64,000 nt of DNA, taken from assembly GCF_057098645.1 (NCBI RefSeq), contig NZ_JBXSPU010000002.1. The stretch is one strand, 5' to 3'. Source of the DNA: a plasmid. Position numbers: made by a program. Every line of letters begins with the position of its first letter. Positions within the stretch are counted from its first letter, which is position 1. Positions 45,001 to 51,000 of this stretch are shown in pieces.

Positions 45001-48000
45001 CTGAAGAAAAACGCGCGGGATATCAGTCTACTGAGGTATATGCCGGCCTGACACAGGCTAAGTGTGCCCGGGAATCGGTGAAAGTATAAAAAACAGCCTG
45101 TTACGGTATAAAAATCGACCATACAGAGAGGGAAACCACCGGAGTGGTGGGAAAAGCAGAAAGGCTCACGTGGCATAAGGCGTGGACAATGGTATCGACT
45201 GGTTTTTCAATTTCCTATACGTGAACCAGGTATTATGCTGCCGTTCAACAGTCTGGCGCATAAAATCCCGGATTAACTGAGAGCCATTACGGTCCATGCT
45301 TTTTGCAGCAGCCATAAAAGCATCCTTCAGTTCCGCGTCAATTCTTAAACTCATATTAACCTGTGCCATTTATCACCTCGTCATTACCACGTATATACAC
45401 AGTATATAACGATTCAGATATTGTCACTAGGATATGCCGCGCCAGCGGCATGGAAGGCGGTACGCTGTGGTTACATGTGATACCGGAGTAAAACCGCCGA
45501 AGCCCGGCGTCAGCCGGTACTGATTGATAGATTTCACCTTAACCATCCCCAGCCCTGCTAAGCCATACCCGCGTTCAGCCATGAAAGAGCTTCTGTGCGC
45601 AGTCGGAGTGGTCCCGACAAGGGTTTACCCGCAGTCGGGGCGTATCTCCGCGTTAGCGGGCCGTGAGGGCCGCTTACGAGCGTGTACTCAATACTTCCAG
45701 CCAGAAGACTGACAGCGATGATGATGTAGTTACAACATTCATAATTGAAAGCGACTCTGTTCCGGCCCGAAGGGCCGGGGCGGGGCCGCTTTTCAGTTAT
45801 GAGGGAGGGGCTTTGTGGTTTCGGTTCTGCGCTGGACCGGGGTTTTTCTGGAGGTTGTTTTTGTGTGTTGTAACTAAAGTGGCTCCGGTCGGGGCCCGCC
45901 GCTTGTGGTGTGAACCGCCCCGGAAATCCTGGAGACTAAACTCCCTGAGAAAGAGGTAAACAGGATGACTAAAAATACTCGTTTTTCCCCCGAAGTCCGT
46001 CAGCGGGCGATTCGTATGGTTCTGGAAAGTCAGGATGAATATGACTCACAGTGGGCGGCAATTTGTTCCATTGCCCCAAAGATTGGCTGTACGCCGGAGA
46101 CTCTGCGTGTCTGGGTTCGCCAGCATGAGCGGGATACCGGGAGTGGTGATGGTGGACTCACCACCGCTGAACGTCAGCGTCTGAAAGAGCTGGAACGTGA
46201 AAATCGTGAACTGCGCCGCAGTAACGATATCCTTCGCCAGGCTTCCGCTTATTTTGCGAAGGCGGAGTTCGACCGCCTCTGGAAAAAATGATGCCACTGC
46301 TGGATAAGCTGCGTGAGCAGTACGGGGTCGGACCGCTATGCAGCGAACTGCATATTGCCCCGTCAACGTATTACCATTGTCAGCAACAGCGACATCATCC
46401 GGATAAACGCAGTGCCCGTGCGCAGCGCGATGACTGGCTGAAGAAAGAGATACAGCGCGTATACGATGAAAATCACAAGGTATACGGTGTGCGTAAAGTC
46501 TGGCGTCAGTTGTTACGGGAAGGTATCAGAGTGGCCAGATGCACTGTGGCACGTCTCATGGCAGTTATGGGACTTGCCGGTGTTCTCCGGGGTAAAAAGG
46601 TCCGTACGACCATCAGCCGGAAAGCCGTTGCCGCAGGCGACCGCGTAAACCGTCAGTTCGTGGCAGAACGACCTGACCAGCTGTGGGTGGCTGATTTTAC
46701 TTACGTCAGCACATGGCGGGGCTTCGTCTATGTGGCGTTCATCATTGATGTGTTTGCCGGATACATCGTGGGGTGGCGGGTCTCATCGTCCATGGAAACG
46801 ACATTCGTGCTGGATGCACTGGAGCAGGCGTTGTGGGCCCGTCGGCCGTCCGGCACAATCCATCACAGTGATAAAGGTTCTCAGTATGTATCGCTGGCCT
46901 ACACGCAGCGGCTTAAGGAAGCCGGATTACTGGCATCAACAGGGAGTACTGGCGACTCGTATGACAACGCGATGGCGGAGAGCATCAATGGTCTTTACAA
47001 AGCGGAGGTAATACACCGTAAGAGCTGGAAAAACCGTGCAGAAGTGGAACTGGCCACACTCACGTGGGTGGACTGGTATAACAATCGACGATTGCTGGAA
47101 AGGCTGGGCCATATTCCTCCGGCAGAAGCAGAAAAAGCTTATTATGCTTCCATCGGAAATAATGATCTGGCAGCCTGAGTTCACAGATAAAATACTCTCC
47201 AGGAAACCCGGGGCGGTTCATTTCTTTTTAAATGAATGTAATTAAGTAGTTTAAAGGAGATATAAACAGGTGTTTAAAAGATATATTGCACCCTGTAAGA
47301 CTGGCGGCTGGCGCTTTATGAGATGAACGGTTGTAACCTTATCGGGAAGTCCCTTGCAGTTTAATGTGGATAAACAAAATTGCCCGTCTGTGAGACGTGT
47401 TTTGCATCAAAAACATGGGGAACGGATGCAGCAGAAGGTGGATGATGAGGTTGTTTTTTGTATGTAGCGCTGCTTTTTTGTGCGCTGCCGGGCTTCAGGC
47501 GTGTGGATGCCTTCGGCGCGGGCCGGATTATTCTGAGGAGGTCACTTTCAGGGGGAAGCTGTGGCCAGCCGGCTGTAATTACGGTTACGTGACAGAATCA
47601 TGCGCTCCTTCACACGACGCTCCACTTCGCGTTTTACCGCCTCACGATTGTTAGTGAAGCGCCCTTCCGAGATTTCACGCGTCAGCTGCCGTTTCACCAG
47701 GGTGACGATATCCTGACGTTCCCTGCTAGCATCACGACGCGCACGGGCACGCTTTATTCCCCGGGACTTAAGCTCTGTCTGGTAACTGCGGAAACGCTCA
47801 CGGACAAAACGCCAGGCTTTAGCTATCAGTTCATCCATACCCAGGGTATCCAGTCCCTGCTTTTTGCGCTGTCTGTTTTCCCATTCCACACGACTGCGGC
47901 GCGCAGCTGCCACTGCATCCTCAGACACATCAAGGGCGGCAAACAGCGCCGGTGTGAATGTGATATCGGTCGGAATGTTGCAGCCAATAAGCGGGTCATA

Positions 48001-51000
48001 TTCCGTCTGGTAGGTAATCAGCCCCAGCTCTGACAGGAACGTCAGGGCACGGGTGGCTCGGGTGATGGAGAGTGTTCCGGCAGCAGACTCCGTCGCCAAT
48101 CCGCACTCAATGGCCAGTGTGGTGATGGAGCACTGGACTCGGTTGGCCAGTGGGTCATAGTGAAAACACAGCCCCTGCAGCAGCGCATCAATGGCCCGTC
48201 GACGCAGACCACGCGAACGGGCATGCGCCACATGAATGGCGAAATCAAAACGGGAGGTGAAGCCCACCGCCTTTTCCATCAATTTTTCGCAAAACTTCAG
48301 CGTTCCGGCACCTTCACGGGGTGTGAATACCGGATTCGGGTTCTTTACCTGACGGTAATACGTTTGTTGAAGATCAGTCACACCATCCTGCACTTACAAT
48401 GCGCAGAAGGAGTGAGCACAGAAAGAAGTCTTGAACTTTTCCGGGCATATAACTATACTCCCCGCATAGCTGAATTGTTGGCTATACGGTTTATAGATGG
48501 CCCCGGTAATCTTTCTAGTCGCCAAACTTGAAGAAGATTATCGGGTTTTTTGCTTTTCTGGCTCCTGTACGTCCACATCAGAACCAGTTCCCTGCCACCT
48601 TACGGCGTGGCCAGCCATAAAATTCCTCAAACGATCAGTAATCTATCACGCACACCAGAAACAGGCAAGAATGTGATGTTGCTACATTTTAGTTAACTGA
48701 AAGCACTCTTCTGCTTTATCAGTTCAGCAATCATCTCAGCCTGAGTAACGCCTTCAGCCTCACACATCTCCTGTAATTGAACTTTTAACGCAGCAGGAAT
48801 GAATACTCTGAGTTCTTTATGTGTAGCACGTTTTCTTGCCAAGGACGCCTCCTGACGTTCTGCAAGCGTCAGAGGATTACCTTTTCGGTATGCTCGCTTT
48901 GTACCTGATGAGGAAGTTACTGCATTCTCTGTCTGCGACATCTCGCCTCCTCAATATTTGAACCGGGATCGTTTCGCAGAGGATACTACAGTTTTTTGAA
49001 ATCAAAAACTTGAGAATTGTGACGAAGATCTGTGTTGGCGCACAAATCAATGGGAATTACTGTTGTTTAATGTGATTTAAACTGTGAAATAGTATGGTTT
49101 TCAGGTATGAAAATGCCGGGTCTTGCTGCATCCCGATTCTGACTGGAGCTCTGTTCTGAAGGTATCCAGCTATTCTCCGGTCATCTGCAGCAGTTTTTTG
49201 GCATCGTGACTTCTGAGCAACGGAATGCCAGCCTCATAACCTCTTCCAGACTAATATCCCGGCGCCAGCGTTCCAGTCGAAAATGACAGGTATCATCCAG
49301 CTCTACTGCTGCAACAATACTGAACGAGCGCCGTTCAACGGACGATATCAGCCCGTACCTGCGGACACAGATACCACCATTTCATATCCACGATTTTGGA
49401 CAGTCCTTTCATAAAACTGACTTCCCTTTCTGTCAGCAGCGTCTTCTGACCTCACCAGTATTCACTCTGCATCACCGATGCCGTATACATGAACAAGACA
49501 AATTGGCGTGATGGTTATGTGAAAGAGGAGAAAATGCCGATGTTTCAGTTAGGTATTGATGTCAGTAAAAACAATCTTGATCTATGCCTCTTACGGGGGA
49601 CATTAAAGGGAAGATCAAAACTCGTAAGCTAAAAAATACCGCTGATGCGGCTAAAACTGTGGCAGAGTGGCTTAAAAAGCAATCCAGTGAACTGAACGAA
49701 GTTCATATCATCATGGAAGCCACTGGGGTATATCATGAACCTCTAGCTTATGGCCTTCACTTTGCTGGCGCTCAGTGGCAGTTAGTCCATCATTACCGCT
49801 CCCGGTAGCCCGCTCATGCTGGCGCCCCCAGACACGTAGAGTTTCTGGCGTACAGCTAATCTTTGGGGCAATGAAACAAATTGCCGCCCGTTGTAAGTCA
49901 TATTCGCCCTGACGCACCAGAATCATACGGACCGTCCGCTAACGGACTTCCGGGGAAAAACGTGTATTTTTGGTCATCCTGTTTACCTCTTTCTCAGGGA
50001 GTTTAGTCTCCTAGATTTCCGAGGCGCGGTTCAGTACCTGTCAGTACCCTATTATCTGCTAGTCCCTGCCAGTAATTCACCGATAAATGGGACCAACAGC
50101 CGATTGAACTCACTGCATTTTATGTGCTCAGGTGTGCTGTCCCTAGCCAGACGTTCATTGATCTCATCGCTGTGTTTACGTATATCCTCCTGAGTTAAGG
50201 ACTGCCACCCTTTCCCGTTAGCGATCCGGTTAACGCCATTCAGTATCGCCTGATCATCTGGCAAATCACTGCGGTTACATCTCCTTTTCAGATACCGTGT
50301 CGCAGCGGCGATCGACGCCGTTTGTTCTAGCTGTTCGCTCGGGGGAACGGTGGCCTGCTTACGAGTGGAAGGTACCTGATGGCAACCGGCGACAGTCACC
50401 AGGACCAGTAATGACGTGATACAATTTAGTTTTTTCAACGTATTAATCCTCATATTTTTAACCAGGTATTGTTTAACCGGTTTCCGGTTTACTATAGTCC
50501 CGTTATTCTCTGAGCCATTTTTATTACCAGCCCCGGAAACCGAACGCTACATCAACAAAAAATGGCATACTCCGCTCAAGGCGAGCCACGGACCAAAAGG
50601 CAGCGGCCGGGTAAAATCCGTGGCTGTAACAAAACGCAGCAGTACCGTTATGATTAATCCGCTGACTGAGGCAAACAGAAGCACGGAGGGTAATACCTGC
50701 CACCCCATCCATGCTCCCAGTGCCGCAGCTAGCTTAAAATCACCGTAGCCTAACCCTTCTCTACCGGTAACGAAACGAAAAAGCCAGTACAGCCCCCACA
50801 GACAGAGATACCCAGAGACCGCCCCCACTACCGCCTCCTCCAAGGGCACTCTCCCCCCCTGTAAGCTGAATAACAGGCCAAGCCAGAGCAGGGATAACGT
50901 CAGCACATCCGGCAGCATAGCCGTACGACAGTCAATAACCGCCAGAACCAACAGCATGGCAATAAAAAGCCAGGCAGCAACTAATGTCAGCCCGGGATGA

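Follow-up and report, generated by a model that had tools for sequence, protein, structure and literature searches.

Copy number in plasmids R1 and R100 (NR1) is governed by an antisense-controlled basic replicon, and we describe here a replicon of the same kind, an IncFII (RepFIIA) basic replicon that lies at 47221-48941 on the minus strand of a 64,000-nucleotide plasmid stretch (NCBI RefSeq assembly GCF_057098645.1, contig NZ_JBXSPU010000002.1), hereafter the window. With R100 it has in common the gene order, the 8-nucleotide (nt) overlap of the leader peptide gene tap with a GTG-initiated repA1, the loop of the antisense RNA CopA, the DnaA box and the 9-mers of the origin oriR and, further downstream, an inverted pair of Ter sites, and with the basic replicon of R1 it shares the same architecture, an identical N-terminus of the repressor CopB and a matching context of DnaA-box1. 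The RepFIIA replicon of Sakai pO157 (NC_002128, repA2/repA1 at 71999-73413) has the same circuit at about 93% DNA identity, in a comparable virulence-plasmid setting with etp, a toxB-like open reading frame (ORF), ecf and IS629. The closest relatives are pF2_18C_FIB (NZ_CP043544), pE105-1 (NZ_CP072312) and CP148520 (pO157-like IncFIB/FII), which are 99.1-99.9% identical to the window over 47221-49100.

The way in which such a circuit works is established for R1 and R100, and we carry that biology over to the window replicon. The loop of stem-loop II (SL-II) of CopA would pair with its target CopT in the repA mRNA leader and thereby block the translation of tap; the 8-nt overlap would couple translation of repA1 to that of tap, and therefore the concentration of CopA would set the rate of RepA1 synthesis. 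CopB would repress the promoter PrepA and let go of it when copy number falls. RepA1 in turn would act in cis on oriR, helped by DnaA bound at the adjacent box, and the AT-rich 9-mers would be opened.

Organisation of the IncFII replicon

The segment 49100..47221 on the minus strand is colinear with 88094-89997 of R100 (NC_002134), with 87% identity over 1,880 nt in a DNA alignment that begins ahead of copB and ends at the last of the AT-rich 9-mers in oriR. Upstream of copB the homology extends to about 49465 and enters the 3' portion of the gene lying before copB in R100, and beyond a copy of IS629 at the other end the alignment picks up again 44 bp later at 92%. R100 served as the reference for direct alignment, R1 being compared only via CopB and via those pieces of R1 sequence that PMC5883639 reproduces. 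Along the minus strand copB comes first, followed by PrepA and its operator, the CopT leader and the antisense copA convergent with it, tap, GTG-initiated repA1, the CIS spacer and oriR (Table 1), and a displaced flank containing repA4 and the Ter sites carries the replicon on to about 45380. The tap/repA1 junction, the CopA loop and the PrepA -10 together with everything downstream of that -10 are conserved with R100, and all four control components (copB, CopA, tap and repA1) pass curated family thresholds. Because of this colinearity, the conserved junction, loop and -10, and the four of four components above threshold, the evidence supports a complete control circuit of the canonical R1/R100 copy-control arrangement, one that we infer to be expressible, and we put the probability that the locus is a genuine IncFII basic replicon at about 95%, an identification against which we see no evidence.

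The initial annotation had claimed just such a circuit at 47300-48941, consisting of copB, CopA with its terminator, a 24-codon tap, a GTG-initiated repA1 and the oriR region, and including elements absent from the ORF track. Each of these was recovered on the minus strand by family models and by alignment with R100, CopA itself being encoded on the plus strand; the three elements missing from an ORF track (the CopA RNA, tap and the GTG start of repA1) are all real here, and tap and copA, which were checked for misalignment with the R1/R100 basic replicon, both align with R100. The elements of the interval thus stand and its start does not, since an interval beginning at 47300 leaves out the AT-rich part of oriR as far as 47221. 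The earlier description made no mention of a 24-bp deletion in repA1, nor of an allele of copB, operator and CopA stem that is of neither R100 nor R1 type.

CopA is recognised by Rfam RF00042 at 48466-48555 on the plus strand over the whole model (1-92), with 93.5 bits against a gathering score of 60 (E=1.8e-17), and its predicted fold is the canonical one, with SL-I, a single-stranded linker and SL-II with a CGCCAA loop, followed by a U-run. The predicted promoter PcopA is the sole sigma-70-like match in 47200-49200 and ends 7 nt upstream of the start of the Rfam match, as is appropriate for a promoter of CopA. Relative to R100, tap carries one nucleotide difference, which is silent; its TGA overlaps codons 2-3 of repA1, so that the geometry of the junction is that of the R100 annotation. 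PrepA is assigned from its position, and is thus putative.

The spacer between repA1 and oriR is colinear with R100, and its function as the CIS region is taken from what is established for R1 and R100. In oriR a DnaA box, TTATCCACA, lies at 47373..47365 on the minus strand, and three TCNTTTAAA 9-mers with 23-bp spacing follow about 83 bp past it, at 47281..47273, 47258..47250 and 47235..47227. The 174 bp at 47221-47394 are 95.4% identical to R100 without a gap. The sequence context of the DnaA box matches that of DnaA-box1 in oriR1 of R1 (PMC5883639). Within the stretch of oriR presumed to bind RepA there is also, at 47330-47337, a Ter-core 8-mer, GTTGTAAC, that R100 conserves; because the rest of the Tus consensus is missing, this 8-mer probably does not act as a Ter site.

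Table 1. Coordinates of the replicon elements and of the flank displaced by IS629, in window numbering (aa, amino acids; ranges are given from the lower to the higher position unless a motif is read on the minus strand).
Feature	Position	Strand	Basis and remarks
copB (repA2), 82-aa predicted transcriptional repressor of PrepA	48693..48941	-	Pfam PF10723 RepB-RCR_reg, E=6.5e-34; NCBIfam NF010256 (PRK13702), 136 bits against a cut-off of 87
Putative PrepA	48640..48668	-	-35 TTGCCT 48668..48663, 17-nt spacer, -10 TAGATT 48645..48640; read from sequence
CopA antisense RNA, SL-I, SL-II and U-run terminator	48466..48562	+	Rfam RF00042; complement is the CopT target in the repA mRNA leader
PcopA promoter (predicted)	48431..48459	+	-35 TTGAAC at 48431, 17 nt, -10 TATACT 48454-48459
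tap (repA6), 24-codon leader peptide	48374..48448	-	PF08048, 54 bits; TIGR03475, 60.6 bits against a cut-off of 35
repA1, GTG-initiated, 277-aa initiator (8-residue deletion form)	47548..48381	-	TIGR03474 equivalog, 550.2 bits against a cut-off of 446.9
Single remaining 11-bp repeat CTGCGTCGACG, marking the 24-bp deletion	48197..48207	-	R100 has two copies flanking the 24 bp
repA1-oriR spacer (CIS region in R1 terminology), 174 bp	47374..47547	-	Colinear with R100
oriR core	47221..47373	-	DnaA box, presumed RepA-binding stretch, three AT-rich 9-mers
IS629 copy C	45911..47220	+	1310 bp, 96.6% identical to Sakai pO157 IS629; orfA 45965-46291, orfB 46288-47178
repA4 remnant without ATG and first 10 nt	45723..45908	-	Intact ORF in CP043544 (5196-5390) is Rep_assoc_RepA4 (Pfam); window starts at its 11th nucleotide
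Ter site TTTTTGTGTGTTGTAACTAAAGT, Tus-binding consensus	45858..45880	+	Pattern match
Second Ter site, inverted, ATTATGAATGTTGTAACTACATC	45723..45745	-	Pattern match

Departures from R100

Three departures from R100 were found, namely a RepA1 shorter by eight residues, a distinct allele of CopB, operator and CopA stem, and an IS629 lesion with loss of 44 bp between oriR and repA4. As to the second of these, CopB has 82 residues against 84 in R100 and is 63% identical to the R100 protein and 55% to that of R1, and the exact protein is found on 116 contigs. The PrepA -10 TAGATT and the sequence downstream of it are conserved with R100 and pO157, whereas the stretch from the 3' end of copB through the -35 side of PrepA could not be aligned with either; the CopB operator should overlap this variable -35 side. 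Compared with R100, several positions of the upper SL-II stem of CopA are changed, a 2-nt indel among them, and Sakai pO157 has a stem allele unlike both R100 and the window, the loop being the same throughout. Differences in the CopA stem are the usual basis of IncFII sub-specificities. Judged by these comparisons, the copy of the replicon in the window is a distinct allele, of neither R100 nor R1 type, in copB, the operator region and the CopA stem. Sakai pO157 departs from the window further in its 285-aa RepA1, its R100-type copB and its location, the replicon adjoining traX-finO rather than etpO.

RepA1 has 277 residues in place of the canonical 285, following a 24-bp in-frame deletion between 11-bp direct repeats that removes the R100 residues LRRRMPPV. 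Outside this gap 267 of the 277 residues (96%) are identical to R100 RepA1, and the ratio of nonsynonymous to synonymous substitution rates (dN/dS) of repA1 against R100 is 0.088, similar to the 0.10 obtained for R100 against pO157. The Pfam match (IncFII_repA) is partial and covers residues 55-191; this was considered as a sign of damage and rejected, because RepA1 of R100 and of pO157 gives the same partial match, and the scores are 87.5 bits for the window protein and 88.1 for that of R100. A structure search returned no homologue of RepA1 with a solved structure.

The same gap of eight residues occurs in 50 of the 117 RepA1 representatives retrieved, on divergent backgrounds and in ORFs that are otherwise intact, and several of the 50 share 99-100% identity, the gap aside, with a homologue in which the eight residues are retained. 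Because it is found on such divergent backgrounds and in proteins nearly identical to ungapped homologues, the deletion has originated or been passed on by transfer several times over. On 285 contigs the exact 277-aa protein is present, in at least three different downstream contexts. In a search spanning the deletion site, the deletion on this particular repA1 allele was found, among the 60 records listed, only in pF2_18C_FIB, pE105-1 and CP148520; these three also carry IncFIB, and none of the 60 records listed is a sole-replicon plasmid with the deletion allele. Other in-frame indels at short repeats occur in RepA1 of the IncFII family, among them both the deletion and the duplication of an 11-residue stretch and the loss of three residues (TRA).

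The three relatives have in common with the window both the 24-bp deletion and the position beside etpO, and pF2_18C_FIB encodes an identical 277-aa protein. They differ from it in having no IS629 at oriR; the 44 bp and an intact repA4 are kept and are followed by yacAB or NleG. In two of them repA1 is frameshifted, through the loss of 2 bp in pE105-1 (after nt 434, in GGCGCTG) and of 1 bp in CP148520 (within the terminal C5 run), and repA1 is missing from the gene tables of both plasmids. These frameshifts may be either real decay or assembly errors.

IS629 at the edge of the origin

The statement in the initial annotation that IS629 copy C sits directly beside the origin is accurate, the right end of the element being 6 bp from the last 9-mer. 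It is a member of the IS3 family, its termini are the inverted repeats TGAACCGCCCCGG, and its products contain the Pfam domains HTH_Tnp_1 and rve; as the -1 frameshift signal an ALIL pseudoknot (RF01497, 120 bits) was also recognised at 46246-46362, at the overlap of orfA and orfB. Comparison with pF2_18C_FIB, pE105-1 and R100 identifies the sequence to the left of the element as the continuation of the replicon, and identifies the 44 bp that are absent at the insertion as ACCTGTTCACTGCCTGTCCTGTGGACAGACAGATATGCACCTCC in replicon orientation. The junction of IS629 with oriR reads GGGGCGGTTCATTTCTTTTTAAATGAATG, and it was found neither in PLSDB, nor in 5,426 complete E. coli genomes, nor in the nine other contexts of the exact RepA1.

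There is no target-site duplication at copy C, which is flanked by GTG and TTT. The missing duplication and the 44-bp loss together point to an adjacent deletion, or to recombination between two copies, after the insertion. The window holds two further copies of the element. Copy B (7797-9106) has the opposite orientation to copy C, 9 positions at which the two differ and likewise no target-site duplication, its flanks being CTC and GGT, and copy A (1-1126), which is cut by the start of the window, has 20 differences from copy C in 1126 positions. An inversion by recombination of copy B with copy C was considered and rejected, as the flanks of copy C lie 44 bp apart in all references and the cross-paired flanks give no duplication.

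It had been left to be checked whether IS629 removed repA4 or terminus sequences, and the outcome is divided. What is lost is the 44 bp near the origin and with it the start of repA4, which is decapitated because the lost segment held its ATG and first 10 nt; both Ter sites are kept on the far side of the element. The pattern GNRNGTTGTAACTA has only two matches in the 64-kb window against 0.03 expected, and the inverted pair is, from the polarity of Tus-Ter, what we take to be a small fork trap. The repA4 region with its inverted Ter pair is consequently no longer contiguous with the origin, since a 1,310-bp IS629 now stands between them, and the Ter pair lies about 1.35-1.5 kb from oriR where it formerly lay at about 90-230 bp. 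Such contiguity belongs to the stability region of the plasmid and not to the copy-control circuit. An inverted Ter pair of this kind has been described for the repA4 region of IncFII plasmids (PMC4398462).

Plasmid context

The window is a segment of a mosaic pO157-like virulence plasmid, mosaic because 36000-45220 is not covered by the closest plasmids that bear the FII replicon. It contains, besides the three copies of IS629, two copies of IS91, an IS21, a Tn3-family transposase, the etp type II secretion operon and stcE. Next to the FII module is etpO, as in pF2_18C_FIB, and not traX-finO as in R100 and Sakai pO157; the module is flanked by IS629 on the origin side and by remnants of insertion sequences (IS) on the copB side. 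In the interval between copB and etpO, 49489-49808 holds a fragment of an IS110-family transposase, and at about 49711-50030 there is a diverged left end resembling that of IS629, in inverted orientation and with part of orfA; some relatives carry a complete IS3-family element at this position. Because IS629-like debris is thus present on the copB side as well, the module is bracketed by IS3-family sequence on both sides.

Elsewhere in the window an ecf-like operon at 2544-7354 (+) comprises genes for a polysaccharide deacetylase, a glycosyltransferase, a CptA-type phosphoethanolamine transferase (1062 bits) and an msbB-type lipid A acyltransferase. At 24554-25780 (-) lies an ORF for a group II intron reverse transcriptase/maturase (TIGR04416, 377 bits), and a 3009-aa ORF extends over 34226-43255 (+), where pO157 carries toxB.

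Discussion

The identity of the replicon and its ability to replicate are separate matters, and alternatives have to be weighed for each. The region might belong to another of the related antisense-controlled families (IncFIC, IncB/O/K/Z, IncI1 or IncL/M) and not to IncFII proper, as MOB-suite assigns the rep of the relatives to rep_cluster_2244 and not to IncFII, and RepA1 also matches the broader RepA_IncFII_LM model. This possibility is nevertheless effectively refuted and in our view highly improbable, because the DNA is colinear with R100, the IncFII equivalog models are passed by RepA as well as by Tap, and RepA1 is almost identical to its R100 counterpart outside the gap; the match of CopA to the full Rfam model speaks against it too. 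It might further be proposed for this IncFII replicon that the loss of eight residues inactivates RepA1, in which case the circuit would regulate a dead initiator. The residues LRRRMPPV are removed from a stretch that is invariant among the full-length alleles compared, and the full-length clusters have thousands of members where the deletion clusters have few. We consider this inactivation unlikely, given that the same deletion recurs on many divergent backgrounds in otherwise intact ORFs, that several gapped proteins are hardly different outside the gap from homologues keeping the eight residues, that the equivalog threshold is still passed with a Pfam score unchanged from that of R100 RepA1, and that the family has further in-frame indels at repeats.

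A more serious alternative is that the FII origin no longer fires and that the module is a dispensable or inactive second replicon, the plasmid being kept by an IncFIB replicon outside the window. On this proposal IS629 would have clipped the AT-rich edge of oriR and parted the origin from repA4, the Ter sites and the priming region, and the intact control genes would be at most incompatibility determinants. Several findings weigh in this direction and hence against a fully functional replicon: the insertion and the 44-bp loss abut the AT-rich end of oriR, of which 6 bp remain past the last 9-mer; the lost 44 bp are nearly invariant, a single position differing between R100 and the relatives; oriR continues through the 44 bp into repA4/Ter without interruption in each of the nine other contexts of this RepA1, and the IS629-oriR junction is peculiar to the window in the collections searched; and all three closed relatives are typed as IncFIB plus rep_cluster_2244, with repA1 frameshifted in two of them. 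The minimal oriR of R1, reportedly defined in vitro by Masai in 1983 as 188 bp, may moreover place the AT-rich boundary 15-30 bp beyond the IS629 junction. The literature on related plasmids adds to these points, since the IncFII plasmid pEC958 needed its repA4 region and oriV for maintenance (PMC4398462) and R1 was destabilised by loss of ter/Tus function (PMC4999828). Against inactivity, repA1, tap, copA and copB are all intact in the window, as are all the recognisable oriR motifs, and both Ter sites are kept; this intactness of the four control elements and of the origin motifs argues for function, and so does the wide distribution and conservation of RepA1 with the deletion, with its low dN/dS and its occurrence in exact form on hundreds of contigs. 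The two frameshifts in the relatives, one at a GCGC repeat and the other at a C5 run, might be errors of assembly, and the 64-kb window shows no IncFIB rep gene, so that IncFIB in this plasmid is assumed from the relatives. Taken together, we regard an origin that no longer fires as a real possibility at somewhat under even odds. It is also conceivable, and in our opinion quite improbable, that the repA1 deletion is not neutral slippage but a selected length switch which tunes initiator activity or copy number in multi-replicon virulence plasmids, and that the IS629-clipped origin then still fires; if so, oriR would need no more than 6 bp past the last 9-mer and would tolerate a 1.3-kb displacement of the Ter sites and the priming region.

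The assignment of the window locus to the IncFII basic replicon is, as a finding, ordinary and already known biology, and public databases already list the exact RepA1 and CopB proteins, correctly named. The additions are limited to the recurrent 8-residue polymorphism of RepA1 and the particular IS629 lesion at the edge of the origin. The value of the finding is mainly one of annotation, as a plain ORF track hides or misplaces an RNA, a 24-codon ORF and a GTG start. Some tools put the allele with its own CopB and operator, CopA stem and 277-aa RepA1 in a rep cluster of its own and not in IncFII, and therefore an FII replicon can go unseen in virulence plasmids of the enterohaemorrhagic E. coli type. 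The IS629 lesion in turn is a natural construct that bears on what oriR needs beyond its AT-rich 9-mers and on the need for an adjacent Ter/repA4 block, and neither this lesion nor the typing point alters current understanding.

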